Part shown: positions 1 through 21,678 of the stretch, piece after piece
Layout of the letters: each line of letters opens with the position of its first letter
Position numbering within the stretch: the first letter of the stretch is position 1
Origin: a virus
Reading direction: 5' to 3' (one strand)
Virus record (IMG/VR): IMGVR_UViG_3300028569_002801
Span: 50,716 to 114,715 of that record
DNA: 64,000 nucleotides
Made by a program: the position numbers and the translations under genes
The notes under the pieces: generated by a model
Databases searched by the model: none
What the model was told of the DNA's origin: nothing
The model's input: only the letters and a program-made list of their open reading frames with translations

Positions 1-1076
1 GTACAACCACTTTCACTTGTTACCGTATAACAATAACATTGTGGAGTTGGTGTAGGTGTTGGTGTAGGTGTCGGCGTTACACAAACCGAACAATCTGAAT
101 AAACGTCTAATACTTGTATTAAGTTTCTATTTGAAGATGCGGTTGTTTTACCGATATACGTTACACACTGTATTTGATTTGACGCACTTCCGTATAAAAG
201 TGCTAAGAATGTAGTTCCCGTACTAACAACAGACCCTGAATATGTTATTGGTTCTGTAATATAATAATGTTCACCCGTATCACAGTCCAATAAGTCTTTA
301 ACTGACGAACAAACAAAATCTCCGCTATCAACAACAAATGTTACTGTATCCGCCGATGGTGTTACAGGGCAATATGATGGTGTTGGTGTCGGAGTTGGTG
401 TCGGAGTTGGTGTTGTCCCTGAAGTGGATATCGTTATTGTGGCAGTAAACGCACTACATATATCTGGTGTTGGTGTGGGAGTCGGTGTAGGTGTAGGGGT
501 GGGGGTTGGTGTCAGAGTAGGTGTCGGGGTTGGAATATCACATTCTAACAATACGTCAAAATCTAAATCTGAACACGGATCTGTAGGAATTGGTGTTATT
601 GAACATATTCCTTCGTACATTATGGTACTATCTAAATCGGGACATCCGTATGTTGTTGGGTTCTGCCCAAAAAAATCACAGGTTCCACCTAATGAATTAC
701 TTAAACACCAATTTGTTCCGTTAAAAAATATGTATCTCGGATTAGTTCCTCCTGTCCAATAATAATCCCCGCCATAATTACCTTCTAATGTATATGTGCC
801 GTTATACCCACTATATGAACTAATAGGTATTGATAAGCAATAGTTATTTTGACAATACCCACTACAAAGTGAGTCATTACAGTCAGTAACCAAAGTAGCA
901 ACACCATCGATTGTAACGGTACTATTTACCAATGACCCAATAGTATAACAACCATCAGGTATATTTGTGTCACCCGTAATATTAAAGACTAAACCGAGCG
1001 TTGTCGAATAACTCCACCCACTTACACTAAAGTTTACACTACTATTTAAACAACTTTCTATGTTAACTAATGCCAT
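1..1076 (-). CDS. Cys-rich virion decoration/fibre protein with three (Pro-Thr)n tracts; runs off the left edge (partial)
   Basis: Not in the ORF track. Translated manually from ATG at 1076: MALVNIESCLNSSVNF...CDIPTPTPTLTPTPTPTPTPTPTPTPDICS...TPTPTPTPTPTPQCYCYTVTSESGC, open to the window edge. TATTTATA motif upstream (1095-1102). Confidence 0.85.
   Translation of the reverse strand, partial: MALVNIESCLNSSVNFSVSGWSYSTTLGLVFNITGDTNIPDGCYTIGSLVNSTVTIDGVATLVTDCNDSLCSGYCQNNYCLSIPISSYSGYNGTYTLEGNYGGDYYWTGGTNPRYIFFNGTNWCLSNSLGGTCDFFGQNPTTYGCPDLDSTIMYEGICSITPIPTDPCSDLDFDVLLECDIPTPTPTLTPTPTPTPTPTPTPTPDICSAFTATITISTSGTTPTPTPTPTPTPSYCPVTPSADTVTFVVDSGDFVCSSVKDLLDCDTGEHYYITEPITYSGSVVSTGTTFLALLYGSASNQIQCVTYIGKTTASSNRNLIQVLDVYSDCSVCVTPTPTPTPTPTPQCYCYTVTSESGC
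466..535 (-). repeat. (Pro-Thr)n coding microsatellite-like tract; others at ~42-78 and ~378-415
   Basis: Degenerate 6-nt periodicity (ggtgtn/ggagtt) on + strand encodes PTPTPT on - strand. Synonymous variation suggests selection at protein level. Confidence 0.9.
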
Positions 1077-1139
1077 TGAATTATTACTTTATTATATAAA
1101 TAATCAAAAGTTTATTTTATTGATGGTTTGTTTTTAAAA

Positions 1140-2336
1140 TTATAAACTAAAGTCAATTCTGTTTACCCAATTACCTTCATTATCGTTTACCCAATACACC
1201 CATTTAACAGGGGTTTCTGTCGTTTTTAGTTTAACGTTTAAATATTCCTGATAACTGTACATGTCTTGTCTATGTAATACATTACCTAACTCATTTTCAA
1301 TTCCTATATATATAAATTTAAAATTTTCAGTATAAGGTATGTAAAGTTTGAACTCATATTCAATTTCCTTTAATTCGTACCAATCTGTATTATCGTTCAC
1401 CGGTGGGTTTGTTCCTTTTATGGTTTCGGGATGTAACTTTTTATTTTTAAAGTTTATTCCCGCATAATTTTCATATTGTGTGTGTGTTCTAACGTCACCT
1501 AACCCATAAACCCCTAAAGCTATATTGTTATCCTCTTCTTGTAACATATGTCTTAATCTACGTTTAGAGTCGTTATCCATTTCCCACCATTGTTTTTCAA
1601 CAATACCATTATTTTTATTTTCTTGATTAAAGTCTGTCCAATGTTTTGTTCTACCTTCTCTTGTGTATTCATGCCAAACCACAGTCTTATGTGGGTGAAA
1701 TAAATCGTAACCTAACGTATATGAACGAATAGATAAACTAATTTCATCACCAGCAAAATAGATATTAGGGTCATACTTATATTCTTCACAATGTTTTCCG
1801 ATTGTAAAAAAGAAATGTCCACTAACAAATCTTGCGGGGATTGGTTTATCTAATGTTTGCCAATTTGGTATTGCGTGTGGTCTAAAAAGGATTGTTCCTC
1901 CCGGTGTGAAGTTAGACGCGACCATCATATATGGTTCAACATTTAATAATTGGTTATCTGATGGTCGGTACATTCCGGCATATGATGTGATGATTGGTTT
2001 TTTTGAACCTGTTATATTCATCATTTCAATCAATTCCACATCCCAATCTTGTAAAAATCTATGATGTGAATCTAATTGTATGGTGTATTCTTCACCGTCC
2101 CATAATTTTTGAATTTCAGAACGAGCCCAACAAAGCCCTTTACTTTCACTCCAATGATAATCTAATATTTTAAATCTTTCATCATTTGTGAATTCTTCCA
2201 TCGATTCAGTTTCATCACGTTGCCAACAAATTCCAAATGTTAAATTTTCAGGGTGTTTTGCTTTATTAATACAATCCCTAATGGTTGGTAATAACTCAGG
2301 ATCTCTATAAGATGCGATTTGTACAAATATTTTCAT
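1140..2336 (-). CDS. GT60 / PF11397 'GlcNAc' family glycosyltransferase (Skp1-Hyp or mucin-type polypeptide alpha-GlcNAc transferase-like)
   Basis: IFVQIASYRDPEL, GLCWARS, DSHHRF (DxH metal motif), FAGDEISLSIRSYTLGYDLFHP and VVWHEYTR match the Gnt1/OGNT family pattern. Confidence 0.85.
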   Translation of the reverse strand: MKIFVQIASYRDPELLPTIRDCINKAKHPENLTFGICWQRDETESMEEFTNDERFKILDYHWSESKGLCWARSEIQKLWDGEEYTIQLDSHHRFLQDWDVELIEMMNITGSKKPIITSYAGMYRPSDNQLLNVEPYMMVASNFTPGGTILFRPHAIPNWQTLDKPIPARFVSGHFFFTIGKHCEEYKYDPNIYFAGDEISLSIRSYTLGYDLFHPHKTVVWHEYTREGRTKHWTDFNQENKNNGIVEKQWWEMDNDSKRRLRHMLQEEDNNIALGVYGLGDVRTHTQYENYAGINFKNKKLHPETIKGTNPPVNDNTDWYELKEIEYEFKLYIPYTENFKFIYIGIENELGNVLHRQDMYSYQEYLNVKLKTTETPVKWVYWVNDNEGNWVNRIDFSL

Positions 2337-2376
2337 ACAAATAAATTAGTTTTTTTTTCTTTTTTGTAAATCTTTA

Positions 2377-2952
2377 TTAACTTGAAGTGTACTTAATCTT
2401 CATTCCTAAAACATAAAGATTAGTATCATTTTGAAAAACACTTAAACCAAAAACATTATTTGATGTTATTCCAGACATATAAGGTAAAACATCCAATGAT
2501 GTGAATTTATTGATATTATAACTATATGTCTGTCCTGTCGTTATTGTTGTGGCACTATAAAACGAATTTACGGGTCCGTATTGTACGTTTATATCAGTAG
2601 AAACATTACCACTAAATGTTGGTATTGTTACCACTTCAGCGGATATCATAGAAGATAAATCGTTTGGAATTAATCCATTTATATAAACAGGGTCGGTACC
2701 TGCATTACAGGTACCAGCATAAAAGTTACCAATATAAGTAGGATTTGTTTCTGAACCTTTAAAGAAAATCTCTTTTATTTGATTAGTATTACCACTAAAT
2801 ATAGTACTTAATTGTTGTAACTCAACTTTATATGATGACCCGTAAAGGCTTTGTGACGTATCTGCAGTTGTTACAATATGTATAATTGTAGTCGGAGTAA
2901 TCGCCGATGATTGAGCTAATGTTCTATCTGTTAATAATTGGTATGTTGGCAT
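2377..2952 (-). CDS. putative fibre/decoration protein
   Basis: 191 aa, Thr/Ser rich, beta-rich C-terminus, in the structural cluster, TATTTAT motif upstream. Confidence 0.55.
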   Translation of the reverse strand: MPTYQLLTDRTLAQSSAITPTTIIHIVTTADTSQSLYGSSYKVELQQLSTIFSGNTNQIKEIFFKGSETNPTYIGNFYAGTCNAGTDPVYINGLIPNDLSSMISAEVVTIPTFSGNVSTDINVQYGPVNSFYSATTITTGQTYSYNINKFTSLDVLPYMSGITSNNVFGLSVFQNDTNLYVLGMKIKYTSS

Positions 2953-2973
2953 AGTTTATTTAATAAATATTAT

Positions 2974-3261
2974 TTATTGGAAAATATAACCTACTCCGTC
3001 CATAAAATTAAAATATATATCATTTTGAAACGCCTTTTGGACCTCACAATTAATAACTGTCGAGTACACACATCCATTTGTATCAACAATTCTTAAATAA
3101 AGGTAATTTTCGTTTGGAAAAAAGTCATCAGTATCAAATATAATATTTGGTGGTATAAAGGTACTCCCTGAAACAAAAAAACAAGACGTGTTAGTTGAGT
3201 CACATATAAAAATATCATATGGTGGTTGTCCGCTCGTTACTCCTGTTATTTCTACGTTCAT
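2974..3261 (-). CDS. small virion protein, single SprB-like beta domain
   Basis: ITGVTSGQPPYDIFICD...IVDTNGC resembles an SprB repeat and is paralogous to the N-terminus of 3276..3845. Confidence 0.6.
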   Translation of the reverse strand: MNVEITGVTSGQPPYDIFICDSTNTSCFFVSGSTFIPPNIIFDTDDFFPNENYLYLRIVDTNGCVYSTVINCEVQKAFQNDIYFNFMDGVGYIFQ

Positions 3262-3275
3262 ATATTATAAATACT

Positions 3276-3845
3276 TTAAGGGCAAGAAGGTAAATCGGTT
3301 ACCACACCGGCAGTAACTTCTGCGATTGCATTATATGTTGGTGAACCACCTATTTTAACTAAAAAGTATCCTGTTAATAATGTTGGTGAACACCCAACAT
3401 TATTAGAATATAAAATAGAACCGATTTGAGGTTCACTTTCATCAAGATACGCCAAAAAAGCCGCATTAACGGCACAAGTACCACCTGTAACACAATTAAA
3501 TGCGGTACAGGCACTTAAAAATGAAGTATAAAAGTATCCCGTAATATTAGTTGAACTACCAAAAGGTGTGTAGTATGGATGTACTGTGCTTGGACCACAA
3601 GTTGGTGTCGGAGTTGGTGTAGGGGTTGGGGGTGGGTCATAACAAGAAACTAATTCAAAGTATTCACATCCTGTTGAATCAATAGTTTTAACCATTAATG
3701 TATTCGCACTTGAATAGAAGGAATTAAGTGTATATGTCCCTCCTGTTGTACTTGTTAAATAACAGTTATTTCCATATTCATCACATAGGTAAACACTCAA
3801 TGGTGGTGTTCCCCCTGTTGTTCCTGATATCGTAATAACACTCAT
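3276..3845 (-). CDS. virion decoration protein: SprB-like N-domain, PT linker, Cys-rich C-domain
   Basis: ISGTTGGTPPLSVYLCD...IDSTGC, then DPPPTPTPTPTPTC. Confidence 0.65.
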   Translation of the reverse strand: MSVITISGTTGGTPPLSVYLCDEYGNNCYLTSTTGGTYTLNSFYSSANTLMVKTIDSTGCEYFELVSCYDPPPTPTPTPTPTCGPSTVHPYYTPFGSSTNITGYFYTSFLSACTAFNCVTGGTCAVNAAFLAYLDESEPQIGSILYSNNVGCSPTLLTGYFLVKIGGSPTYNAIAEVTAGVVTDLPSCP

Positions 3846-6319
3846 TATTGATAAACTAATGTAAACCCCTCTTCTGTTATCATAAAATAACTATCTTCAG
3901 TTAATATTATAAATGATTGACTACAATCGTTACATACTACCTCATATTCTATTTTTAATCTTAAATAAAATTTACAATCACCTAAAGGATCAACATCACC
4001 AACACATTTTGAAATAATTTCAAATGTATTTGTTAATAAATCAATAGTAAAACTTTGTATGTTCGGTATACTACCTAAAATACCTTCGATTGTTGATTGC
4101 CAAAGAGTGTCTTGTGGAATATCATTTAGTGTTGTTGCAGTATAAAATGGTACAGTATATATAGTATCTCCCGATTCACAATCCGTATATACCAAGAAAT
4201 CACCATTTTCTGTTGTAATTGTAAATACGTCCTCAGTTAAAATAAAACACGTATCACCAGATCCTGGACAATCAATTTCTATTTGACAACTAAATACCGC
4301 CCCACTAAAACTACATCCGGTATATCCCGAAATAATATCAATATACCCCTCATTTAACATTTCCGATAAACCTCTTTTAGTTCCAACAGTAGTCGTAAAA
4401 GTACTATTACAAATATTAAATAACTGATAAGATGTTGGAGAGATACCGTTACAATCTATTGTAAAATCTTGTATATCGTAACAACCATTACTATCAGTTA
4501 TTTCAACATAATAGTTTCCAGCGGATAAACCACTTACAGTTGATCCCGTTTGTCCGTTACTCCAATTATACGTAAAAGTTGGTTCTCCTTGATATATTAC
4601 TACGGAAGCCGATCCGTCATTTCCATTAACACAATCTATTTTTTGTATGGAAGTTAAAAGTTGTCCTCCTGTTGTTATTGTAAAACCTGTGGATACCGCA
4701 CAACCAACACTATCAGTGACGGTTATCGTATAATTTCCTGGTAGTAAATTATTATATGTTATTCCTGTCGATGTGGTATCTATTAGGGTGTCTCCGTTAC
4801 TTAATACATAATCTAAAACTCCCGTATATCCTGAAAATACCTCAATAACCGCAACACCGTTTGGTTCCCCACATGTTGACCCGGTAGTTGTTGCACTAAC
4901 AATAAATTTTTGAGTAGATGTTATATTTAATGTTGTTGTATAAACACAACTTGTTCCTGAACCTGAAATTGTTAATTCATATGTATCATTTTGTAAGTTA
5001 GTAAAACTATTAGTTTGATTAAGACTTGTATTTTGATAAACGGTGTTACCACTTAAACCTGATAAAGTGTATGTGTAATATCCTCCAAGCCCTGCAATTT
5101 GCACATCTATTTGTCCATTATTCTGATTGCAGTCTGAGTTGGTAACAATTATGTCTACCACATTAAATCCTCCTACGGGACTTAGAAACCCACTTAATGT
5201 TGTTTCACAAAAATTGGCGTCTCTTACAACAACTTGATAAGTTCCAGCAGCAAGGTTTGTTAATGTGAACACGTTTGATAATGTATACCCAACTTGGGCG
5301 GTAGAAGCCGAATAATAGAAAGGAGCGGTACCTCCAGTTAAAAAATACGTCAGACTACCATCAGATGCGAAACAACTTGGTGTTGATGCACTTAATAACC
5401 CTATACCTAATGGATCAGCAGCACCTACAAATTCACTTTTAGTTACCTCACAACCATTAATATCTGTTACCGTACAAGTATATACTCCTTGTGTTAATCC
5501 CGTAATTAATTGTGTGGTTTCTCCATTACTCCACAAATACGTATAAGGTCCGGTTCCCGTAACTCCTGTTACCGCCAATTTACCTTTATCAATAACACAA
5601 TTAGATGTATTCACCTTCCAAAAACCAAAATCTAAAGAAGTACTTGCAGATATTACCGCGTTTTCAGTGTTAGCCGTGGTACCACCTGAATCAAAAACAG
5701 TAGCATAATAAATACCACTAGGTAATCCGTTAAAATCATATGGTAAAGTTCCTGTTGTTTCTACAACGTAAGGAACACCATCTTGATAAAGAAGAATAGT
5801 ATATGGGGCACCTGAAGATGTTGCACTTATAGTTAAAAATCCGGTATCTTGTCCACAAGTAGTTCCTGATGCGGTAACTACATTTGCCTCAAAACATCCC
5901 GTTACATTAACATTAACATATAATTCATTATTTTGTAAATTAAGAGTATCATTTATTCTGAACACATAAGTACCTCCTGTTAGCCCTGTAAATGTTATAG
6001 GAGAACTACTTGTTTGAGCAGTTAAAGTTCCCGGAATAATATTATCAATTGTGTATGGGGCAACACCACCATATGAAGTGAAAGTCACACTACCTGTTGC
6101 TGCGGAGCAAACCCCCGTAACTTGGAATCCGTAACTAAGTGGTCCTGATGTACATGTTTCTGTACAAGTTACCCCTGTAGCAATATAAACCCCTCTTGCC
6201 GAACCAGAATATGATTCATCTATACATATACTTTCACCAAGTGAAACTCCGAATTGGTATAATCCACAACAGTCTACATATTCATAAACACCATCCGTTA
6301 ATCCTGATACACAAGCCAT
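3845..6319 (-). CDS. SprB-repeat-containing fibre/adhesin-like virion protein
   Basis: Multiple SprB-type repeats (GTGPYTYLWSNGETTQLITGLTQGVYTCTVTDINGC; PTFTYNWSNGQTGSTVSGLSAGNYYVEITDSNGC). No signal peptide or T9SS C-terminal domain visible. Confidence 0.8.
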   Translation of the reverse strand: MACVSGLTDGVYEYVDCCGLYQFGVSLGESICIDESYSGSARGVYIATGVTCTETCTSGPLSYGFQVTGVCSAATGSVTFTSYGGVAPYTIDNIIPGTLTAQTSSSPITFTGLTGGTYVFRINDTLNLQNNELYVNVNVTGCFEANVVTASGTTCGQDTGFLTISATSSGAPYTILLYQDGVPYVVETTGTLPYDFNGLPSGIYYATVFDSGGTTANTENAVISASTSLDFGFWKVNTSNCVIDKGKLAVTGVTGTGPYTYLWSNGETTQLITGLTQGVYTCTVTDINGCEVTKSEFVGAADPLGIGLLSASTPSCFASDGSLTYFLTGGTAPFYYSASTAQVGYTLSNVFTLTNLAAGTYQVVVRDANFCETTLSGFLSPVGGFNVVDIIVTNSDCNQNNGQIDVQIAGLGGYYTYTLSGLSGNTVYQNTSLNQTNSFTNLQNDTYELTISGSGTSCVYTTTLNITSTQKFIVSATTTGSTCGEPNGVAVIEVFSGYTGVLDYVLSNGDTLIDTTSTGITYNNLLPGNYTITVTDSVGCAVSTGFTITTGGQLLTSIQKIDCVNGNDGSASVVIYQGEPTFTYNWSNGQTGSTVSGLSAGNYYVEITDSNGCYDIQDFTIDCNGISPTSYQLFNICNSTFTTTVGTKRGLSEMLNEGYIDIISGYTGCSFSGAVFSCQIEIDCPGSGDTCFILTEDVFTITTENGDFLVYTDCESGDTIYTVPFYTATTLNDIPQDTLWQSTIEGILGSIPNIQSFTIDLLTNTFEIISKCVGDVDPLGDCKFYLRLKIEYEVVCNDCSQSFIILTEDSYFMITEEGFTLVYQ

Positions 6320-6345
6320 ATATAATTTTTTTCTTTATTTTTTTA

Positions 6346-9300
6346 TTAAGGACAAACCCCCATGTTTATTGCTGATACAAATCTTGGAGATGTACTTGTT
6401 GGTATTGTAGTTGAGCAAACATTAAATGTTCCTCCACCTAAAAATGAAGTAGTCGTCCCAACCCCACTACAGTTATATGTGGTATAAGCTCCTCCAGTTG
6501 GACTAAACGTTACTGCCCACATATATGTCACGCAAGGTGTAGGGGTTGGTGTAGGTGTTGGAGTTGGAGTTGGCGTCAAAACTGTTTGTTGTGAACAATT
6601 TATTTGTAAATCAACCCCTATGTTAAGATATAAGGTTTTACTTGTAAAATCGTCGTAACATGTTGAATTACTAACTACAAGTGTACTTCCAGCCAAATAA
6701 AAATTTAATCCGTAATTGTATAATTCAACTAAATATGTATTAACCGCATTTACCAAATCAGTGGTTGATGGGTAACCACCAATACCATACCCTGTATAAA
6801 ATTGTTCTTGTACTAAAATTTGTGAATCTAACCTACAGTCAATATACCAATTAGTAACTATACTATTAATATCACAATCACTCTGTGTGAATCCACTATT
6901 AGTTAAAACGTTATTTAACGCATAATTCAATATTGCTGCCGGATCGGTTTTTACATCACATTTTAATGTCTGATCAATACAATCATAACTAAATGGTTCT
7001 CCGTTATACGTACACGGAATACAAGAAACAGGAATAAATGTACAACCTCTTTGTCTTCTCCAAACAAACTTTTGTCTATGGAAAATAGAATTTTCCATTT
7101 TTTGTCCTGTTAACCATAAAGTGGTTCCTGGAACTACTTGTTCTAATAGTCTTTGCCAATGATCACCTAAACCTAAAGTATAGTCTATCATTTTTTGATA
7201 TGTAAACTTATTAGAAGGTATTCCTACAGTTTGATCAGACTCCAAATATCTCCAATAAACTGATTGTAACGTAGGGTAACCTCCCGTTTTACCATCAAAT
7301 ATTGTTTGTCGATTTCTAACATTAATGAAGTTATTATAAAAACTTTGAGCGAACTCAAAGAATGTTTTTTCTTTTGGTTTTGGGTTAATAAATGTCCAAT
7401 CTATATTACCAGGATATGGGTATGGTGCCGTCAATCCTGAATTTGGTATAGGGTATCCGTACTTTACAGACATATCCCATATATCATAAGTAATACCTTG
7501 ACCCATGTTAGTATATAACTCAATATTTTTAGAATTAATTACTAACCTATCATCACTAACAGTATAATCTACCCCATTAAAATTTGACCCGTCTTTTCTA
7601 TTCCCCGTATCATTAACTGCCCAAGATTTTTGATTATCACTTATCTTAGTTAACGTATACCCTTCTGCAATATCAGGAAAATCTCTAAACCTATCCATAT
7701 ATTCTTGTCCATATGTGAATGGTTTTAATGATGATATTAAATATGGGTTGGTTGGGTTAAAGGATGAGTTTACAGAGTCAGCCTCTTGATTTGATCTATG
7801 TTCAGGACTTGTCTCAAACCATCCAGCCCCTTTTTGGAAGAAGTTGTCGTCTGTAATTGCGGGACTTTGGGGGTACCCATCAGAATCAACTCCGTAATCG
7901 TTTAATGTCGTTGTTATTAAATTTATAACCCCACTTGTAGTATATCCTGTGTAAATCACACCCAATAAACTAAATGTATTAGCCGGATCAAAAACAGGTG
8001 TCTCTACATATGTTGTCCCTCCAGAAATTTGACAATACTTTTCGTAAAAATCATTATAATTTATTTTAGTATCAGCCAAATAAATAACTTCATTAAACTC
8101 TAATAATGCTTCAGGGGCACCTATAAATCTCATAACATATTCCAAAGATTGTCTAGTCCCCTTTGTTCTAAACATGTGTGCGGAGTTTAATATTATATTT
8201 CTATAGTATTGATAGTTTAACTCTGTTGGTGTGTCTGAAACTGACTGCCCAGGAAAAACTTGTTTAGCGTTTGGATCAAATACTGAATTTAAAAACCCTT
8301 CATTTGTTATTGGTGAGATGTCTGAATTAATCCCTAATGTTTGAGCTAAATTTGTGAGTAGTTGTGAAGGTATATCATTACCTACTTGGTAATTTACAGA
8401 GTTCATATATGCTAACGCATCAATAAACTTTTTAACTTCATCAAAACTTCTACCGTATATTTGTAATACCTTTTCAATTTTTTGATCATCAGTATCAAAC
8501 TCTTTGAATGATCCTGTAATTAAAAATCTACTTATTAAATTTGTTTTATATTCGTCTAATTTTTCAGCAATACTCTGTATTTGAGATATATATTGTTCAA
8601 ATTTAGTACTATTAATATCTAAGTTCCAATACTTGTCTATCGGCCAAGTTACTTGTTTTGTAAATAAAGTATATTTACCTGCCGAATCGTAATCAGGATA
8701 TGTAAATTTAGCACTGTATTTTGGATACACACTTCTATTTAACATAAAATCTTCAACCTCATCAAAGTTATCTAAAAATACCTTTTCTGTTGTTTCATTA
8801 TTTAATTTTATAACTAAATTAAAAGTTGATGCACTTTGTCCGGGAAACATATCCCCTTTCACTGTTAATGTAAGAGTACCCCCTGTCATATTCTCAACAG
8901 GAATCATATCCGTTACTTTGTATTCTGTACTAACATCTCTAAAATAAACGGCATAACTTTCAAAGTTATTAGTCATATCCCTAAATGGACTAACAGTTAT
9001 CGGTCTAGTTAATATGTTTCTAGCGGCGTTTTCAGAATAATCAATACTAAATGGGTTATAGATTAAACCAGTATTAATATCAAAAGTGGTTTCATCGTTT
9101 TTTCTATCATAAACAATATTAGATGCAGTATTTCCTGTATATAATCCTGACGTTTGTCTTGGATAAACCTCTAAAGCCGCAGGGAAAAAATTTATTACCT
9201 TTATAATTGAGGTTGACATTCTTTTCTGTAGGGAACCATACAACGAAAAACTAGTGATTTCCGATATATCAAAATTTGGGTAAACTTTAAAAGTCTTTTC

Positions 9301-9525
9301 AATAATCCTTTTTACCTCTTCAATATTATCTATTTTAAGGTTTTCTAAAGTATAAGGATTAGAAAATATACCAGTGTCAAATTTTCTATTTGTCTTTTCA
9401 TATATTGCACTAGTAAACTCAAAATTACCTTGCGTCAAACCTCCCCCATCCACAATTTGGAATCCTACAAGGTTATCAGAAAAGGTTTTAACCCCACCAG
9501 GTGGAAAAAATATTTTATTTGCCAT
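6346..9525 (-). CDS. baseplate wedge protein (T4 gp7 / P2 gpI-like) with C-terminal PT linker and Cys-rich module
   Basis: LLTNLAQTLG...AHMFRTKGTRQSLEYVMRFIG is the gpI/gp7-type signature; located downstream of the gp6-like gene. Confidence 0.65.
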   Translation of the reverse strand: MANKIFFPPGGVKTFSDNLVGFQIVDGGGLTQGNFEFTSAIYEKTNRKFDTGIFSNPYTLENLKIDNIEEVKRIIEKTFKVYPNFDISEITSFSLYGSLQKRMSTSIIKVINFFPAALEVYPRQTSGLYTGNTASNIVYDRKNDETTFDINTGLIYNPFSIDYSENAARNILTRPITVSPFRDMTNNFESYAVYFRDVSTEYKVTDMIPVENMTGGTLTLTVKGDMFPGQSASTFNLVIKLNNETTEKVFLDNFDEVEDFMLNRSVYPKYSAKFTYPDYDSAGKYTLFTKQVTWPIDKYWNLDINSTKFEQYISQIQSIAEKLDEYKTNLISRFLITGSFKEFDTDDQKIEKVLQIYGRSFDEVKKFIDALAYMNSVNYQVGNDIPSQLLTNLAQTLGINSDISPITNEGFLNSVFDPNAKQVFPGQSVSDTPTELNYQYYRNIILNSAHMFRTKGTRQSLEYVMRFIGAPEALLEFNEVIYLADTKINYNDFYEKYCQISGGTTYVETPVFDPANTFSLLGVIYTGYTTSGVINLITTTLNDYGVDSDGYPQSPAITDDNFFQKGAGWFETSPEHRSNQEADSVNSSFNPTNPYLISSLKPFTYGQEYMDRFRDFPDIAEGYTLTKISDNQKSWAVNDTGNRKDGSNFNGVDYTVSDDRLVINSKNIELYTNMGQGITYDIWDMSVKYGYPIPNSGLTAPYPYPGNIDWTFINPKPKEKTFFEFAQSFYNNFINVRNRQTIFDGKTGGYPTLQSVYWRYLESDQTVGIPSNKFTYQKMIDYTLGLGDHWQRLLEQVVPGTTLWLTGQKMENSIFHRQKFVWRRQRGCTFIPVSCIPCTYNGEPFSYDCIDQTLKCDVKTDPAAILNYALNNVLTNSGFTQSDCDINSIVTNWYIDCRLDSQILVQEQFYTGYGIGGYPSTTDLVNAVNTYLVELYNYGLNFYLAGSTLVVSNSTCYDDFTSKTLYLNIGVDLQINCSQQTVLTPTPTPTPTPTPTPCVTYMWAVTFSPTGGAYTTYNCSGVGTTTSFLGGGTFNVCSTTIPTSTSPRFVSAINMGVCP

Positions 9526-10433
9526 TAACTAATAATATTTGTAAAGTTTTTACTAAAATCTATATTGTTTCCTCTATCTTGTCTAACCTCATATAGTAAT
9601 TCATTAAAATTATCTCTAACCTCAAACAAGTTATATTGTTTATAGATATTACCGCCACTATCATATAACGTGTAAATACCGTCTTCAATACTTTTAGTTT
9701 GGTTACCATAAAGAGCAATCGCTATAGTATCTAAATCATAATCAGCCATTTGAATATCAATGGTGATTGGATTAAAAAACGTATTCGTAACTATGATGTT
9801 TTGGTTTGGTTGCCCAATAAATGGAGTCGCGTTTGGTTTATTGGTTGGTGACGACGATGGTGATAGCGTACAAAACACTAAATCACTTCCTCCATCAACA
9901 TATCTATATCTTATACTTTTTTGTGAGGAATTAACTTGTTCTGTAACAATAGGTTCACAAAAGAAAGAAGATGTAACGATTCTATAAAAATTAGGTATTT
10001 TTGTCCCGTCCTGATTTAAGTACTCAACTCTATACCCAACAAGTCCTTGGTTTGTAAATTTATTTCTAAATTGTGCAGGTACTTGGTTAATGTCTATTAT
10101 AATACCTTTAACGTTGGGTAATGCAGATAATACTCCACAATCACTGATTGTTGTTCTTATTTCTGCAGGACGTAAATAAACGGTATATATTCCTTTCTTA
10201 TTAAACTCTGAAGCCGGAAGTTTTAAACTATACAATCCACCTAAAATTTCAACATTAGCATTACCACCTGTATCGCCATTATGAAAATACGGTGTCAATA
10301 TACTTCTTGAGTTTAATTTCTTTAAAAGAAAGTTATCTGTAACATCTCTTGAGACGGTGTAATGTAAAATTATATCTACATCATCTGGTGACACGTCAGC
10401 CGGTCTAACTATTCCATAAGTTCCTAATGCCAT
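9525..10433 (-). CDS. hypothetical structural protein
   Basis: 302-aa ORF, TAATG-coupled to the next gene, TATTTATA upstream. Confidence 0.6.
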   Translation of the reverse strand: MALGTYGIVRPADVSPDDVDIILHYTVSRDVTDNFLLKKLNSRSILTPYFHNGDTGGNANVEILGGLYSLKLPASEFNKKGIYTVYLRPAEIRTTISDCGVLSALPNVKGIIIDINQVPAQFRNKFTNQGLVGYRVEYLNQDGTKIPNFYRIVTSSFFCEPIVTEQVNSSQKSIRYRYVDGGSDLVFCTLSPSSSPTNKPNATPFIGQPNQNIIVTNTFFNPITIDIQMADYDLDTIAIALYGNQTKSIEDGIYTLYDSGGNIYKQYNLFEVRDNFNELLYEVRQDRGNNIDFSKNFTNIIS

Positions 10434-10466
10434 TTTTTTATTTTATAAATAGTTTATATTGTTTTT

Positions 10467-11609
10467 TTATGTGGTTTTTATTCGATAATACCCATAACCG
10501 TATCTTACAAGATCACCAATATTATCAACCTCACCTAACCTTTGTAGTGGTTCAAATGCCGAATACTTACCCCTTTCTATATAAACATCCGTTTGTATTT
10601 CAGGTGACATAACAAAATCAAGTAAATACTCATTTTTAGTCATTGCCGATGCGATTATATCATTTGATGTTATACCACTACTATTAACAATATAAAAGGT
10701 TTTACCATTAACTAAATCGTAATAATTAACATTATTAATTGTATAGGCAGTATAATCAGGAGTCATTGAGTCAACTTGACCAAATACTTGATTGTTTTTA
10801 TTAAACACATAACCGACGGTGTATGGTGCTGGACCCCACCTTTTTAAATCTTGTATCCTTGATTTTGTGAATCCAGAAATTGGGAATGGTACTGTCGTGA
10901 AGTTACTTGATATTTGATATGGTATATTATTTTGTGCGTCCCCATCAAAAATGTAGTTATAAGATATTGGCGTATTAGCCCAATTACCTTGTTGTGGTAT
11001 AAATGTTATAGTTCCTTGTGGATTCGTAACTGATGCCAAAACTAAAGGTATTGTTATTGGTTTTTCTATTATGGTTACCCCCCACGGATTTGACCCCGAT
11101 AATGTTATTGTATAATCACCTGAACTTACATATGTATGATTTAAAAATGACGTTGTTAGTGGTTGTGATAAACCATCTCCCCAATCAACACTATATGTTG
11201 TGAAGTCTAAATAACTAACAGTAAAATCTCCAGAAGTGTTATATAATGTAACTTCATACGTATTAAATGGGTTTGCTCCTGAAAATAAAAAGTTGGTTAC
11301 TATATCTTTTTGTAATATTAATCCGTCAAATTCAGAATAAAACCCAATGTCGTTATATGTTTGTGTAAACATGATAGGTATCGTTAATCCTGTTAATACC
11401 GAATCTCCGTTTGTCCCCCCACTTAAAATGTCAGACATTCCAGAGTAAATATATATTTGATCCGTTCTAAAAATTTGATTAGGTACCGCAAGATCTAGAC
11501 ACGGTTGTTCCTCATAACTATACCCCGTATCTGCGGTATAAATAAACCCGTATATGTCTAAAGCTAAGGTTTCGGGTGATATTAAAATACTAAATTTTTC
11601 TGATTCCAT
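10467..11609 (-). CDS. PKD-domain structural protein
   Basis: YSVDWGDG...NHTYVSSGDYTITLSGSN is the PKD signature. Confidence 0.7.
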   Translation of the reverse strand: MESEKFSILISPETLALDIYGFIYTADTGYSYEEQPCLDLAVPNQIFRTDQIYIYSGMSDILSGGTNGDSVLTGLTIPIMFTQTYNDIGFYSEFDGLILQKDIVTNFLFSGANPFNTYEVTLYNTSGDFTVSYLDFTTYSVDWGDGLSQPLTTSFLNHTYVSSGDYTITLSGSNPWGVTIIEKPITIPLVLASVTNPQGTITFIPQQGNWANTPISYNYIFDGDAQNNIPYQISSNFTTVPFPISGFTKSRIQDLKRWGPAPYTVGYVFNKNNQVFGQVDSMTPDYTAYTINNVNYYDLVNGKTFYIVNSSGITSNDIIASAMTKNEYLLDFVMSPEIQTDVYIERGKYSAFEPLQRLGEVDNIGDLVRYGYGYYRIKTT

Positions 11610-12454
11610 TATGGGTTAACGTATTCATACCAGATTATAGCTTCAGAGGCTAAAGGACCAACACCAACTCTTGTTAATGCTGGAGTTTCTTTATATATTT
11701 TATATTCATATGTTGAATAATCTATATCTACTTTATAGTAAAAGTACTGTGATTTATCAAAGTTGTACACCGTAGGTCCAACTAATGACGATTGTGGTGT
11801 GTTCATCATTCTTACAAATTGTCCTTTTTTTGCATTAAAGAATTTAGCACTCATATAAAATGTGGTGTTTGTTAAATATGATGGGTTTTTCAACCAATAA
11901 TAAAAAAACCCCTCTTTATCTGCACCAACATAATCAAGTAAAAATTTTGGTTTTTTAACGTCTACCTGTGTAGGATTTAAAATTGGACCAATGAAACCAG
12001 GTTCTTTTAATCCTTGTTGTGTTGGTAGTACCACTGAAAAAAGTATCTTTTGATTTTCAGGTACTTTAGTGTCGTAAAAATCCAATTTAAAAAAACTACC
12101 TTTAAATGAATTTGCAAAATAATATATCTCACTGTCAGTAAAAGTCGCATACTGATAATCATCTAACCAATTAGTGATTGATGGTGGGTTATTCATAAAG
12201 TCTGTTGTTGTTGCTGGATCAAAAAAGTTAAATTGGTAGTATATCTCTGTTTTATCTTGATTTAAATCCCACGGCGCGTGAGCAAATTTTGTAGTTTCAA
12301 AATCATCAATACCGTTTATCGCCTTTTTAACAACTTCGGATTCATATTCCTCAACACCCATTTCCCTACCTTCGGTATCAAAAGATAATTCAATAGGTAT
12401 AATAACATCTCTATCATTAACATTAAGATTAAATCTATAGTAATTATTATTCAC
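11609..12454 (-). CDS. hypothetical structural protein
   Basis: 281 aa, translationally coupled within the baseplate operon. Confidence 0.55.
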   Translation of the reverse strand: MNNNYYRFNLNVNDRDVIIPIELSFDTEGREMGVEEYESEVVKKAINGIDDFETTKFAHAPWDLNQDKTEIYYQFNFFDPATTTDFMNNPPSITNWLDDYQYATFTDSEIYYFANSFKGSFFKLDFYDTKVPENQKILFSVVLPTQQGLKEPGFIGPILNPTQVDVKKPKFLLDYVGADKEGFFYYWLKNPSYLTNTTFYMSAKFFNAKKGQFVRMMNTPQSSLVGPTVYNFDKSQYFYYKVDIDYSTYEYKIYKETPALTRVGVGPLASEAIIWYEYVNP

Positions 12455-14198
12455 AGTCGTCGTTAATTGGATCGTTTATCAATGATGTTGTCACCATATT
12501 ATTTCTCTTAATAGGTTTTTGTAAAAACAATATGTTTTTAAATGGATAATGGGCACCGTTTATAAATGGGTTATCAATACCAATTCCGTCACCATCTATG
12601 TATCCATATGTATATATATCCCTCCATATGAAAGTCTCTTCGTATTGTGAATACCAAGCATAGTTAGGGATATTATCTACCTCACCTTTTTTACCATATT
12701 CTAAATAGTCACTAAATACCCGTATAGGTACTTCGTAGTGTGGTTCATATGCGTAACCACTCGGTAAATTTAATGGTGAATTATCTAAAAAATTAATAGG
12801 GTTAAATGAATATTTGTGATATAATGATGATATAACATATTCTTTTTGTTCCATATAATTATACTCACAAAAATCACCTTTAATAACGTCACCAACATTT
12901 AATAAGTTGTTATAATAAAAATATTGACCACTACCAACGGGGTATTCGTATGAGGATGATGTTATATTATCTTTATTTATAGATGATCCGTGATCCCACC
13001 AGTTATCTACATTATTTCTTTGGAAGTTAAATCCCCAACCAATATCCAACCCAACAACATTACCGTTTTGGTTTATCGATGGTGGGTTAAACCAACCCAT
13101 GTATCCTCTTTGTATTATACTAACAAATAAATCCATTACGGGTTTACCGTTATTATCTTTTAATTGGTTTATTTCAATATCTTTATCAAAACTATAACTA
13201 AAGGTTTTTGATCCATCTTTAACGGATACCCTTTGTAGTTGGTTTGGTGTAAGTGCTGAATATTCCAATTTTGATTTAACAGGAAATGGATTTGTTTCAA
13301 ACCCCGCCTGTAATAAATTAACGTCTTCAGCGTTTGTTAATATTTTATGTAGTCTAACATAGTATATAGATTTAGTTTCTCCACTATTTTGTATATTACT
13401 TATTCTTTTAAAATTACCATATGTTCCTGTTGTTGTTTGAGCCACAGGGAATTTTAAATCATATATACTAAAGACATTTTCTTCTGTACCGTAAGTCCCA
13501 TCACCAACACCATATACTTCAAATGTGTTTTTACCCCCCAAACCTAATGGGTTTGTTGGTATTGATAACTCAACGTTTTCTCCGGGTTTTAAATTGTGTT
13601 TAGTTCCACAATAAAAATAAACTAAAGATTTACCATTAAATGATGAGGTATCAATAACAAATGGTATCCCATCGGACGCAATAAAATTATTAGTAACGTT
13701 AAATTGTTCACTCGTATACGCCATTGCATGTTGGGTGTCACTACTAAACCCATATGATAAATAAATCGACCAATTATATGTTGTTGAACTTTTTGCAACA
13801 AACGGGATGTGTCCGATAATTCCTTGTTTTCTAATGAACGTAAACTCTTCAAATTGTGGATAACCTTCCCACAACACTGATGGGTTAGGTGGTGTATTAG
13901 CAGTAGCATTTGCAATAGCGTTAGTGTAGTATAACGTATTTCTATATGGTGTGTAAGATGTTTTTCCACTAACCGTATTGTTAAAAACATTTACAATTTT
14001 ACCTGAAACTCTAATTGTTCCACTTTCTTGTCTTTCTTTATTGAATAACTCCTCTTGGTTAACAGTAATCGATCTGTCACCTTCAACCATTGTCCTTCTA
14101 TCACCAATTAATGGTGGTTGTATCCATACATCTTTATCCGTACTTGCTGCGTATCGTTTTGAACCTAAGACAATTAATATTTCGTTTTCATTAGACAT
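12447..14198 (-). CDS. hypothetical structural protein
   Basis: 583 aa, overlaps both neighbours in the baseplate operon. Confidence 0.55.
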   Translation of the reverse strand: MSNENEILIVLGSKRYAASTDKDVWIQPPLIGDRRTMVEGDRSITVNQEELFNKERQESGTIRVSGKIVNVFNNTVSGKTSYTPYRNTLYYTNAIANATANTPPNPSVLWEGYPQFEEFTFIRKQGIIGHIPFVAKSSTTYNWSIYLSYGFSSDTQHAMAYTSEQFNVTNNFIASDGIPFVIDTSSFNGKSLVYFYCGTKHNLKPGENVELSIPTNPLGLGGKNTFEVYGVGDGTYGTEENVFSIYDLKFPVAQTTTGTYGNFKRISNIQNSGETKSIYYVRLHKILTNAEDVNLLQAGFETNPFPVKSKLEYSALTPNQLQRVSVKDGSKTFSYSFDKDIEINQLKDNNGKPVMDLFVSIIQRGYMGWFNPPSINQNGNVVGLDIGWGFNFQRNNVDNWWDHGSSINKDNITSSSYEYPVGSGQYFYYNNLLNVGDVIKGDFCEYNYMEQKEYVISSLYHKYSFNPINFLDNSPLNLPSGYAYEPHYEVPIRVFSDYLEYGKKGEVDNIPNYAWYSQYEETFIWRDIYTYGYIDGDGIGIDNPFINGAHYPFKNILFLQKPIKRNNMVTTSLINDPINDDCE

Positions 14199-17100
14199 CT
14201 TGATTTAAAATGTATTTTGTTATATATCTGTTTATTGAGCTTTTACCTTTACCTAAACCAAAATAAAAATGGTATGGTGAACCAACCAAGAAAGGATTTT
14301 GTTGTCCTGCCGGCATAGTTTCATCTGTCGAACCACCCGGTGTTGAGTTATATATATAACCTCTTCTACCTGTGTTTAAATTATTAAAGTATTGTGAAAA
14401 TGGTGACTGATAAAAACTTAAGTCTTGGTATTTTTGAGAGTAGAATCCTCCACTACCTAATAAGTTTGTCTCCCAATCATTTAAATCGCTACCAAATATT
14501 GTATTTACAGATCCTTGGTTCAATTTCCATTGATAAAATGGTACTTCTTGAGTTTTAGGGTAACCAAAATAATTTGTAAGTGTTGGAGTAAATGTTGTTA
14601 TTCCTGGTGACACGACTATTCTATTTTCAGTGTTTGAGGTAAAGAATACTCCAATCGTTGCGTCTCCTGCGGTGGCAATATATATATCACCAACACCATC
14701 ATATGTGTCTTCATCAAACCCTTCAACGCCATACTCTGAATTAATACTAAATAATTGTACAATGTCTCCGTCCAGTCTATCTTCACTTCTTGAAAACATT
14801 CTATTAATTGATGCATCCCCAAAATTAAATATCTGTTGTAAAAAACTAGTATTAATAAGTCTTGATACAATAAATAACTGTAATAAATCTGACGTATCGT
14901 TATAGGATGTTGATTTAATTGTGTCAACAATATACCCCTCAAAGTCAGGGTTAGTACAAATTTCTTTAGTAAATTCATCTCTTGCACCTAAATCCATAAT
15001 AGTTGTTGGGAAAAATATATTCCTTTCGTTAGCCCCACCAAAATCAACAGGTAGAAGTGTTGGGTTTGAGTATGTCCCTTGTTTTGGTATTTGTCCAACA
15101 AAATTATTTGAGTCGTATGGTGTTGATCTATAGAAAAATGAGTTTGTTGTATTTTCTGTATAAAAAATTGGTCCTTGTCCAGGTCTAATGGTACTATCAT
15201 ACGTACCACAAAACTTATATTTTTTTGGTTGTCCGACAATGTTAAAAATTGTTTGTTTTTTAAATGAGAACATATATAAAGTACCATTAACCCAATTGTT
15301 TTGGAAAACGTGTGCGAAGATTCCTCTACATGCACCAAACATCATTCTAAATCTAAGTTTCCATTCGGTAAAGTTTTCAAAGTCTTTTTTAATGTTTACC
15401 ACATATGGTTTTTGAATAAATTGATAACATCCTGATTTAATCCTTACCGGGTCTTCATTATCATCACAAGGAGTTTCTATACCAAAACTATTTGTTGCCG
15501 CATCAATTGTATAACATTTTAATGGAACCATACCTGCACAATCAAAAGAACTTAAAACACTGCTCGCCGCGTTAGGTACGTCAGGACCAAAGTCTTGTGA
15601 ATTGTTTGATGAGTCTGTTGATCCAACACCAACAATTAAAGTTTCGGCATTTTCTGATAAAATATATGATGTAAAATTATCATTTTGATGTAATGAGAAA
15701 CTATTTAAACCATCGTTTTGATTAACATCAGAAGTTGGTAATCTGTCAGATCTTAAAACTAACTTGGGGTTTGCCCCCGAAGGTATTGTTACTGAAAGAG
15801 CCCCTGACGTTGTTGTATATGCGGGAGAATATATCCTACCATTATAACTTGATAATGGGTTAAAATCGTTATTTGGATTTTGTGTTGTTGCCATATAGGA
15901 TCCACCTTCTGTATTACCTTGTAAAATACCTGTAGTGTTATAGTATTTTATAGTGTTAATACCATTTTCAGAAACCGCAACTGTTGAGTAATACGTTCCT
16001 AATCCATTACCTGAACCAGGATTCCATCCACCACCTAATGATTTATCCAATGAAGAATAATATCTAATAGATGTTGATGTTACGGAACTAAACTGAGTTC
16101 CGCTTAATTGAAAGTTAAACGGTTGATGGTATATACTAGATGTTGCGTATGGTGTTGTATGTGCTTCTGGTGATCTATTGTTATTATACCAAGCACCTGA
16201 ACCTGAGTTTGGTTGTATTGGTACATTTAAATTAAATTGTCCTCTAACATTAACAGTGTTTGAACCTAATGGATACCCAAAAATTTTAGATAAGTCATAA
16301 TTAATATCCTGTTTTTCTGAATAGGTATCAACCCCTCTAACCAATATTAAAACATTCATATCTTTCCAACCATCACCATTAAGTGTTAATGGGTTAATTC
16401 GTTCGGTAAACGTTGATGTATTTCCATTCCTATATCTTATAAGTTGTAATTTATTTAAAACATATTTTCTTATCAATGATGATGTGTCATATTGTGTTGC
16501 CGTATTTGGGTTATTATTAATATTTATTCCACTCGCTAAAATGTCCGCATTATATGCTGTCATACCTGTAATCACTTGGTAATACTCTAACCCTGTTTTA
16601 AACTTATATTCTTTTTCTGATGAGGTTCCAGATACTTGTATATTAATCGTTACTGAATTACCAATTTGGTTTACGTATGTTAATGGTGTATTTGTAACGG
16701 CAGTATATGATGTTCCCGTTATTGTGTTAGAACCGAATTGGTTTGTTACTCCACTGACAATATTAATATCATTAATATTATTAGGGTTAGTAAATGTTAC
16801 TAACGTACCTGACGGATATGTGCCTAATGTAGATTGATCACAAAGTAACACTATAATGTTATCAGTAAATGGTGTTCCATTATTTACCGTTGTAGTAATA
16901 ACATTAGGTGCCGTTGTGTCAAAATATCTACTTCTTATATTTGCCAAATTTAAAGATTGTGAATACGTAATATCCTCTTGACTATAGTATTTTTCATTTG
17001 TCTCTGTAAAATCTTTCGTTATTGGCATCCCAATTTCAGGAGATGTTGGGAACCCCGCAATACCATATCTAATACCATAACTATCTGCTTGATATTTTTG

Positions 17101-21137: not shown

Positions 21138-21602
21138 TTAAATGTTTATAATTACAAATTCTTTACTTCCAAAAGCCTTATTTTCGTCAGTATAGTCAAT
21201 TTTTAGTTTTGCGGTGTATTCTGCAGTGTTTGCTCCGGGTATTTTATATATACTAGCCTGTCCCAAAAGTTCGTAATCCAATTGTCCAACAACCTCATCA
21301 GTTTCAGTGTAGGGTTCAATCGTTATACTATTAATTAAAAGATTAGGTATGTATTTTGCAACTTGTTCTTCAATGTCTGATTTAATGTTTTCAAATGTTT
21401 CACCATCTAATGGTTCAAATATGAATTCATAAATTCTAGTACCAAAATCAGGTAAATAATACCTACTACCTTTTCTTGTCAAAATTAAATGTAAAAGATT
21501 TGTTCTTATCTCTTCATCTGAAAATTGAGTTAATAGTAAATAATCCCCGACATTACTTTGTCTAAAAGGAAAACTTATTCCATATGTTCTACCATCTGCC
21601 AT
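21138..21602 (-). CDS. baseplate wedge gp25-like (GPW/gp25) protein
   Basis: IRTNLLHLILTRKGSRYYLPDFGTRIYEFIFEP. Start moved to MADGRTYG (21602), just after a TATTTAT motif; the longer track start lies inside a terminator. Confidence 0.9.
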   Translation of the reverse strand: MADGRTYGISFPFRQSNVGDYLLLTQFSDEEIRTNLLHLILTRKGSRYYLPDFGTRIYEFIFEPLDGETFENIKSDIEEQVAKYIPNLLINSITIEPYTETDEVVGQLDYELLGQASIYKIPGANTAEYTAKLKIDYTDENKAFGSKEFVIINI

Positions 21603-21650
21603 ATCTAATAAATATAGTGTTGCTAATTTTCTAATAAATAGATATAAAAT

Positions 21651-21678
21651 AAAAAATCCCAACTTACCGTTGGGATTT
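21651..21678 (-). terminator. intrinsic terminator ending the replication/RNR block
   Basis: Stem aaatcccaac/gttgggattt, loop ttacc, followed on - strand by a U-tract. Confidence 0.8.

Follow-up and report, generated by a model that had tools for sequence, protein, structure and literature searches.

A GT60 gene lies among PT-tract genes in a baseplate operon

The DNA analysed here, referred to as the window, comprises the final 64 kb of an IMG/VR record of 114,715 bp (IMGVR_UViG_3300028569_002801, labelled G000). Near its start, on the minus strand, lies a gene for a 398-amino-acid (aa) glycosyltransferase (GT) of family GT60 (1140–2336), accompanied by three genes whose products contain tracts of alternating proline and threonine (PT tracts). 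One of these lies directly downstream, 63 bp away on the same strand, and encodes a modular, Cys-rich protein of 598 aa; its first 358 codons occupy 3–1076 and the gene ends at G000:49995, beyond the window. The other two are upstream, at ∼1 kb (a 189-aa two-domain protein, 3276–3845) and ∼4 kb (a 1059-aa protein, 6346–9525), both also on the minus strand.

The PT tracts listed in the preliminary description of this DNA, three in the downstream gene and one in each of the upstream genes, were all found. Those of the 598-aa protein are PTPTPT-L-(TP)8 (465–533), (TP)6 (378–413) and (TP)6 (42–77), with a short PEPTPTPK besides, past the window start. The 189-aa protein has a (PT)5 linker, PTPTPTPTPT, at 3600–3629, and the 1059-aa protein a (TP)7 linker at 6535–6576, followed by a Cys-containing C-terminal module of ∼60 aa. 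PT tracts of at least three repeats occur in only four open reading frames (ORFs) of the 114.7-kb contig; three of these are within 5 kb of the GT60 gene and the fourth, the sole other one, has merely PTPTPT. Because such tracts are so rare in the contig, and because no ORF with four or more PT repeats was found in 738 kb of control viral DNA, their clustering here exceeds chance. PT tracts are absent from the capsid and tube genes of the contig. Synonymous codons are mixed within the tracts, so the repeat is maintained at the level of protein. A plus-strand ORF at 424–762 that would encode (GV)n was rejected as an antisense image of the PT tracts.

From 21662 the minus-strand genes run head to tail as far as the window start and beyond it in the contig, so that the transferase gene sits among virion-type genes in a one-strand operon. 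This is headed by a gp25-like gene (21138–21662; PF04965, E = 3.9e-10) and a gp6-like baseplate wedge gene (19297–21135; phrog_219, E = 2e-22). Then come tightly packed, large genes for proteins of 1677, 583, 281, 380 and 302 aa in the order of transcription (9525–19224), unannotated apart from a PKD domain in the 380-aa product, and the gene for the 1059-aa protein, for which the ESM Atlas gave only a weak baseplate-wedge lead. An 824-aa fibre- or adhesin-like protein with SprB repeats (3845–6319; PF13573, E = 1e-17) precedes the 189-aa protein. Between the latter and the GT60 gene are two ORFs whose products matched neither Pfam nor PHROG: a small Cys-containing beta module of 95 aa (2974–3261), which by eye resembles the N-terminal domain of the 189-aa protein, and, directly upstream of the GT60 gene, a Thr/Ser/Asn-rich protein of 191 aa (2377–2952). 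On the 3′ side of the 598-aa gene are further SprB-type proteins and then a primase. The earlier claim that structural genes flank the transferase gene is thus in keeping with the gp25- and gp6-like genes and with the SprB and PKD neighbours, its support being that of context.

Judged from its genes, the record belongs to a T4-like jumbo myovirus with a genome of ∼300 kb: it encodes a tail sheath, a T4-type baseplate protein, DnaB, UvsX, a family-B polymerase and ribonucleotide reductase, and the size follows from a CheckV completeness of 38%. The DNA has a GC content of ∼32%, and megablast of the region against GenBank phages gave no match. The host may belong to the Bacteroidota, a hint given by the SprB repeats. 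In its size, its habitat and the number of its transferase genes the phage resembles the ‘moraphages’ (PMC12619734), a likeness that does not imply membership.

The 398-aa protein has the fold of polypeptide GalNAc-transferases

The 398-aa protein matches PF11397 with E = 3.5e-66 and 224.5 bits (cut-off 21), in two stretches that cover profile positions 2–44 and 95–350, and matches PHROG 24687 over its full length. The four family motifs previously pointed out are all present: IASYRD (aa 7–12), DSH (89–91), GDEI (196–199) and WHEY (221–224). D89, H91, E198 and H222 are invariant across an alignment of 68 homologues, and DSH and the later His222 are, by sequence, the predicted counterparts of the DxH-type metal ligands described for GT60 and GT27 (PMC7185993).

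The AlphaFold (AF2) model (pLDDT 95.7, pTM 0.88) consists of a GT-A catalytic domain from residue 3 to ∼300 and a C-terminal beta-sandwich at ∼325–397, a domain that is kept across phage and bacterial homologues; neither sequence nor model contains a signal peptide or a membrane anchor. The top 50 Foldseek matches of the model in the Protein Data Bank (PDB) were all polypeptide N-acetylgalactosaminyl (GalNAc) transferases (ppGalNAc-Ts). VIA-align gave the same picture, its top 29 entries being ppGalNAc-Ts (Z 19.2–23.1, rmsd ∼3.3 Å, ∼275 residues); the first other enzyme had Z 17.0, and generic GT-A enzymes scored no higher than 17. PDB sequence searches with the single protein and with the 68-sequence profile gave no GT60 or GT27 match, so apparently no GT60 structure is available. 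The assignment to GT60 proposed in the preliminary description therefore stands, and the predicted structure, which it had called for as a check, matches mucin-type polypeptide GalNAc-transferases in particular. The protein is most likely a soluble, cytoplasmic, metal-dependent GT-A glycosyltransferase of GT60, its activity being predicted from the model.

GT60 and GT27 are sister families that have in common the DxH variant and the O-glycosylation of Ser and Thr in polypeptides (PMC7185993), and protist GT60 enzymes initiate mucin-type glycans with N-acetylglucosamine (GlcNAc) and lack the ricin-like domain found in their animal counterparts (PMC8724618). We rejected glycosylation of DNA by an enzyme of the T4 alpha-gt/beta-gt type, since the model is GT-A and not GT-B; the context also speaks against it, and no companion gene for hydroxymethyl-pyrimidine synthesis turned up among the window ORFs scanned, in a contig that is 38% complete.

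Among homologues, the top-scoring metagenomic ones (P0001–P0012 and others) are giant proteins of 800–2461 aa with two to five tandem GT60 domains, and one (P0028) comes from a giant virus, Barrevirus.

PT tracts link Cys-rich modules and are conserved

In 26 orthologues of the 598-aa protein (47–94% identity) the positions of the tracts and their pure P/T composition are preserved, and more than 20 Cys residues are invariant. Its AF2 model (pLDDT 72) shows five beta-rich modules linked by PT segments that are disordered and of low confidence. The model had no Foldseek match at E ≤ 0.001; the sequence had no Pfam match, a weak PHROG match of unknown function only, and in the ESM Atlas only viral hypothetical proteins as relatives. 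A fibre role for this protein is consequently suggested by its context.

Cys flanks 16% of tracts at both ends, within eight residues, where 4.6% would be expected, and it makes up 3.0% of PT proteins compared with 1.4% of the background. The tracts also appear as points of insertion: a Cys-rich module of ∼70 aa lies inside tract 3 in this lineage, and one of ∼100 aa inside tract 1 of an orthologue (L023:11266–13359).

GT60 genes and PT tracts are associated across phage lineages

The preliminary description had proposed comparing the occurrence of GT60 with that of PT-tract proteins in related phages. We surveyed flanks of 10 kb on each side of GT60 loci, and the outcome was strongly positive in several lineages when set against controls. 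Among close relatives, in which the transferase is 54–87% identical, 42 of 45 loci have PT ORFs in the flanks, usually the orthologue of the 598-aa protein. The pattern is sharpest in a 291,867-bp genome that is 99% complete (G001): all 31 hits to (CCNACN)x4 fall at 60.8–64.3 kb, with the transferase gene at 62.75–63.94 kb, and its (PT)x4 hits are in both genes flanking the transferase, all within 2 kb of it. Two further genomes (G002 and G003) show the same pattern save for one outlier, and a third (G004) has one tract near the transferase gene and another far off. By comparison, (PT)x4 is absent from four large control phage records without GT60 (83–261 kb).

A profile scan found GT60 in at least 591 IMG/VR viral contigs. 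Of 72 new loci whose enzymes have 39–77% identity, 32 have an ORF with at least four PT repeats in the flank, 25 have it within 3 kb, and it is nearly always on the same strand. No such ORF was found at 80 control loci (Fisher p = 4e-13), which comprise 738 kb of viral DNA and are not matched fibre modules. A looser criterion of P/T/S-richness was satisfied at 43/72 GT60 loci and 9/80 controls. When the tracts were masked, the 133 PT ORFs fell into 38 BLAST clusters; the clusters are unrelated, so what these proteins have in common is the tract and not a single conserved partner gene. Counted by lineage, 7 of 13 transferase clusters at 60% identity have a PT ORF within 3 kb.

We also searched in reverse. 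A scan of IMG/VR with a (PT)x7 pattern gave 71 searchable records, 11 of them with PF11397. One (G023) was dropped, because the open frame is antisense and encodes (GV)n. This left GT60 in 10/70 PT-tract records versus 1/56 controls with P-[EK]x7 (Fisher p = 0.02), denominators that still contain possible further antisense hits. The GT60 enzymes of the PT-positive records are 24–40% identical to the 398-aa enzyme. A PT ORF directly adjoins the GT60 gene on the same strand in four of these records (G033, G058, G073 and G068) and is ∼1.8 kb away in another (G056), the enzymes of these five being 30–40% identical to ours; in three (G008, G046 and G021) the tracts are 12–73 kb from it. The dropped record itself has a weak GT60-like gene (24% identity) beside a protein with long (GV)n linkers (L319:8700–9500).

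Outside phages, bacterial assemblies from many phyla contain more than 550 GT60 homologues. Of 80 such loci, 17 had PT ORFs, often right beside the GT60 gene, a count that stands without a control set.

The slot beside the PT protein can hold other transferases

At 67 of the 72 loci that encode a homologue of the 598-aa protein, a GT60 gene lies within 10 kb, its product being either 65–87% or 37–46% identical to ours. Three syntenic relatives (L404–L406) have no GT60 on their ∼30-kb contigs and retain the PT tracts. At the GT60 position they carry a 196-aa gene on the minus strand (L404:9329–9919; ∼9336–9911 in L405 and L406) that matches GT29 sialyltransferases (PF00777, E = 6e-18). Another locus has a GT29-like gene on the plus strand after GT60 (L337:11801–12238; PF00777). 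These GT29-like products of 146–196 aa have the sialyl-motif-like sequences CILVGNGPS, HIIGFDS and HHYW. In one of the records with an adjoining PT ORF (G073; L320:8800–11000, plus strand), two GT32-type Gly_transf_sug stretches (PF04488, E = 7e-31) separate GT60 from a second PT protein. That the slot beside the PT protein still holds a transferase after the enzyme family has changed is difficult to account for if the transferases do not act on the module.

Further transferase genes were noted in passing. GT29 is regarded as a family of eukaryotes and eukaryotic viruses, and its presence in phage is unusual in itself; a search for it in G000–G004 found none. Upstream in G073 is a PT protein of 2153 aa, so that several transferase genes seem to form a cassette with PT proteins at both ends. 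GT2-type genes number three to five in each of G001–G004, far from the fibre module (in G001:C1 at 129–132 kb, 142.6 kb and 242 kb, and at comparable places in G002–G004); there are none in the present, 38%-complete contig.

Cultured relatives

The Xanthomonas jumbo phages XacN1 and Xoo-sp13 and the Stenotrophomonas phages CM1 and RAS14 encode full-length homologues of the 398-aa enzyme with 33–37% identity; that of XacN1, ORF334, is 36.5% identical over its full length. Because all four carry GT60 together with mucin-like proteins, the idea that GT60 glycosylates PT tracts can be tested directly. In XacN1 the order of genes is baseplate wedge (ORF323/324), ORF325, a GT9-like gene (ORF328), a carbamoyltransferase (ORF333) and GT60 (ORF334). 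ORF325 (AP018399.1 203370–213311), directly after the wedge genes, encodes 3313 aa with Cys-flanked PT tracts. XacN1 thus resembles our phage in the succession of baseplate wedge, giant PT-tract protein and transferases including GT60, and differs from it in that GT60 adjoins a carbamoyltransferase and is ∼9 kb from the PT protein (63 bp here).

XacN1 virions contain at least two Schiff-stained glycoproteins, which its authors suggest are made by phage transferases; they did not assign the bands to particular proteins, to GT60 or to PT tracts (PMC5852040). Very long mucin-like PT/ST proteins are encoded elsewhere in XacN1 (∼274–277 kb; L054 and L056) and in Xoo-sp13 (MN047793.1; L051, L053 and L057), and these Xanthomonas phage proteins, ORF325 included, have hundreds of residues of TPTPT/TxTPT.

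Exceptions to the association and alternative explanations

The preliminary description had suggested that the phage glycosylates its own PT linkers, and had named as evidence to the contrary the finding of PT tracts without the transferase and vice versa. The co-occurrence found by comparative genomics supports the suggestion, and exceptions do exist in both directions, although three of the relatives with PT tracts and no GT60 are those with the GT29-like gene. The following observations weigh against PT tracts being the acceptor. About 55% of diverse GT60 phage loci have no strict PT tract within 10 kb. (PT)x4 is lacking altogether in two GT60-bearing records, G135 (294 kb, 100% complete) and G132, although in the former an imperfect PT/QT tract occurs 4 kb away from the transferase gene. 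Conversely, ∼60 of 70 PT-tract viral records have no GT60; most are fragments, though complete genomes are included, and it follows that PT tracts do not need GT60. Our counts overstate the number of independent events, because many loci come from related phages. No fold or family could be recognised for the PT proteins, and gene order is what places them in the virion. In XacN1 and Xoo-sp13 the GT60 gene is beside a carbamoyltransferase, near replication genes. To name PT tracts as acceptors of bacterial and phage GT60 enzymes would be to argue by guilt by association, and PT linkers and transferase might both just typify fibre modules.

One of the complete records with long PT tracts and no GT60 (148 kb; L470 = G064:C1:1–18000) has almost no long ORFs at ∼4–15.7 kb under table 11, which suggests a recoded stop codon.

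Could the PT tracts be plain linkers, rigid or flexible and unglycosylated, and the transferase an unrelated moron co-inherited with the operon? That many phages and bacteria have PT linkers without GT60, and that much of the association derives from related phages with shared synteny, would fit such an explanation. We nevertheless regard it as quite improbable. The association persists for GT60 enzymes that are only 30–40% identical and for PT partners that are not homologous, where GT60 is missing a transferase of another family occupies the slot, and in a 292-kb genome the PT tracts all lie beside the transferase gene. The glycoproteins in XacN1 virions also argue against it (PMC5852040).

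A different objection is that the GT60 enzyme is active on some other acceptor, such as a host protein, sites outside the PT tracts on virion proteins, or a glycan or lipid of the host envelope (for receptor masking or superinfection exclusion), and that its closeness to PT genes just reflects joint membership of a variable host-recognition module. The many GT60 loci without a PT neighbour are consistent with this, as are the >550 bacterial homologues, for which acceptors are not assigned. In XacN1 and Xoo-sp13 the flanking carbamoyltransferase and the nearby GT9 heptosyltransferase-like gene suggest glycan chemistry, and transferase clusters of jumbo phages have been interpreted as modifiers of surface polysaccharides (PMC7824862). 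Against this, every GT60 or GT27 enzyme so far characterised has a polypeptide as its acceptor (PMC7185993; PMC8724618), and the structural matches single out ppGalNAc-Ts, polysaccharide GT-A enzymes scoring ∼2 Z units lower. The enzyme has neither membrane anchor nor signal peptide, its gene belongs to a late structural operon, and PT tracts are enriched >40-fold near GT60 over 38 unrelated protein clusters. We consider another acceptor unlikely.

Relation to known glycosylation systems

The nearest characterised relatives are the protist GT60 enzymes, Dictyostelium Gnt2 (pp-alphaGlcNAcT2) and Gnt1 and the Trypanosoma cruzi OGNTs. These share with the phage enzyme PF11397, the DxH motif and a GT-A fold nearest to GT27, and their known acceptors are mucin-like tracts rich in Thr and Pro. 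The phage enzyme is soluble and without a membrane anchor, like the cytoplasmic Gnt1. Unlike the protist enzymes, it has no counterpart of profile positions ∼45–94, it carries the conserved C-terminal beta-sandwich (∼75 aa, with no fold assigned), and it is phage-encoded and would act in the bacterial cytoplasm; it is known here from sequence and model.

GT60 also contains an enzyme with a different acceptor, hydroxyproline: this is Gnt1, the founding member behind the Pfam description. By analogy, the prolines of the PT tracts might first be hydroxylated and GT60 then add GlcNAc to hydroxyproline, as Gnt1 does on Skp1 in Dictyostelium. A hint in this direction is that P0001 (2461 aa, four GT60 domains) is named in its source as a prolyl-hydroxylase/peroxiredoxin-like fusion. 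A search for one family of prolyl 4-hydroxylases, PF13640, with other 2-oxoglutarate (2OG) oxygenase families and host enzymes outside its scope, found none in G000 (38% complete) or in G001 (99%). This favours Thr over hydroxyproline as the acceptor, and we give the hydroxyproline route very little credence.

The mucin-type initiators of family GT27, from animals and Toxoplasma, are the best structural matches and have the DxH...H metal site in common with the phage enzyme. GT27 enzymes favour Thr residues adjacent to Pro. The phage enzyme itself stands outside GT27: sequence identity is 12–16%, and it lacks the ricin-type lectin domain and the Golgi anchor. What the window does have in common with mucin-type systems is that Pro/Thr-rich, acceptor-type proteins are co-encoded with the initiating enzyme, three of them within ∼4 kb.

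Glycosylation of mycobacteriophage virions has reportedly been described by Freeman et al. in 2023. According to a summary in a further report, transferases encoded beside structural genes put O-linked glycans on virion proteins of mycobacteriophages, siphoviruses of Actinobacteria, on the C-terminal tails of capsid and tail-tube subunits (PMC12619734). The PT tracts are not C-terminal extensions of capsid or tail-tube proteins: the putative acceptors here are internal linkers of baseplate or fibre proteins in a jumbo myovirus, and the enzyme is of GT60. The preliminary description called a mucin-type module unusual for a tailed phage, which is a fair view of the enzyme and its proposed acceptor, although glycosylation of phage virions as such is known (PMC12619734; PMC5852040).

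The proposed acceptors also have a counterpart in bacterial and fungal cellulases. The inter-module (PT)n linkers of these enzymes, as in Cellulomonas fimi CenA and Cex, are O-glycosylated, which protects them against proteolysis and extends the linker. Cellulases are secreted and their linkers are glycosylated outside the cytoplasm by unrelated mannosyltransferases. They also differ in having no dedicated, adjacent GT60.

A proposed model for glycosylation of PT linkers

On the genomic and modelling evidence, we think that the GT60 enzyme probably adds N-acetylhexosamine (HexNAc) in O-linkage, in the cytoplasm, to Thr in the PT linkers of baseplate or fibre proteins. The enzyme would be made late, from the baseplate/fibre operon, while virion parts are being made in the host cytoplasm, and would draw on host UDP-HexNAc, most likely UDP-GlcNAc. 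The sugar would become alpha-linked to the hydroxyl of Thr residues in the (Pro-Thr)n linkers between globular modules of the 598-aa, 189-aa and 1059-aa proteins, the putative fibre- or adhesin-like acceptors. Adjoining GT32-like and GT29-like transferases may extend the sugar in some lineages. The presumed benefit is that glycosylated linkers would be stiff, extended and protease-resistant.

We also put forward, more tentatively, a broader proposition that may well prove too wide: mucin-type O-glycosylation could be a widespread, unrecognised trait of large tailed phages, in which a cytoplasmic GT60 acts as initiator by attaching HexNAc to Thr residues in the (PT)n linkers of baseplate and fibre proteins, while interchangeable GT29 sialyltransferase-like and GT32-like cassettes extend the glycan or take over the slot, giving the host-recognition apparatus a strain-variable glycan coat. 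If this were so, phage and bacterial enzymes would be relevant to the origin of GT27/GT60 mucin glycosylation in eukaryotes.

There are very few systems in which phage particles have been shown to be glycosylated after translation. The present candidate is probably a case of phage virion glycosylation, a kind of modification already known, brought about by a pairing of GT60 with PT tracts for which our search of the literature on GT60 or PF11397 in phage found no earlier description. If it is borne out, environmental jumbo phages would have a second virion glycosylation system, distinct in its mechanism; a mucin initiation enzyme of eukaryotic style would become part of the biology of the bacterial cytoplasm, and hundreds of uncharacterised prokaryotic GT60 genes would gain a first acceptor. 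Such a system would also account for the strict conservation of (PT)n in fibre proteins and would bear on phage stability, protease resistance, adsorption and immune recognition. The enzyme might then offer a simple cytoplasmic tool for placing O-HexNAc on designed PT tags.

Other genes in the window

Two genes outside the operon were noted. An Fe/Mn superoxide dismutase (54963–56048, plus strand; PF00081 and PF02777) has an N-terminal extension of ∼160 aa without a family match. Nearer the end of the window, on the minus strand (62425–63501), is a phage protein with an LCIB/C-type beta-carbonic-anhydrase domain (PF18599, E = 2e-27).

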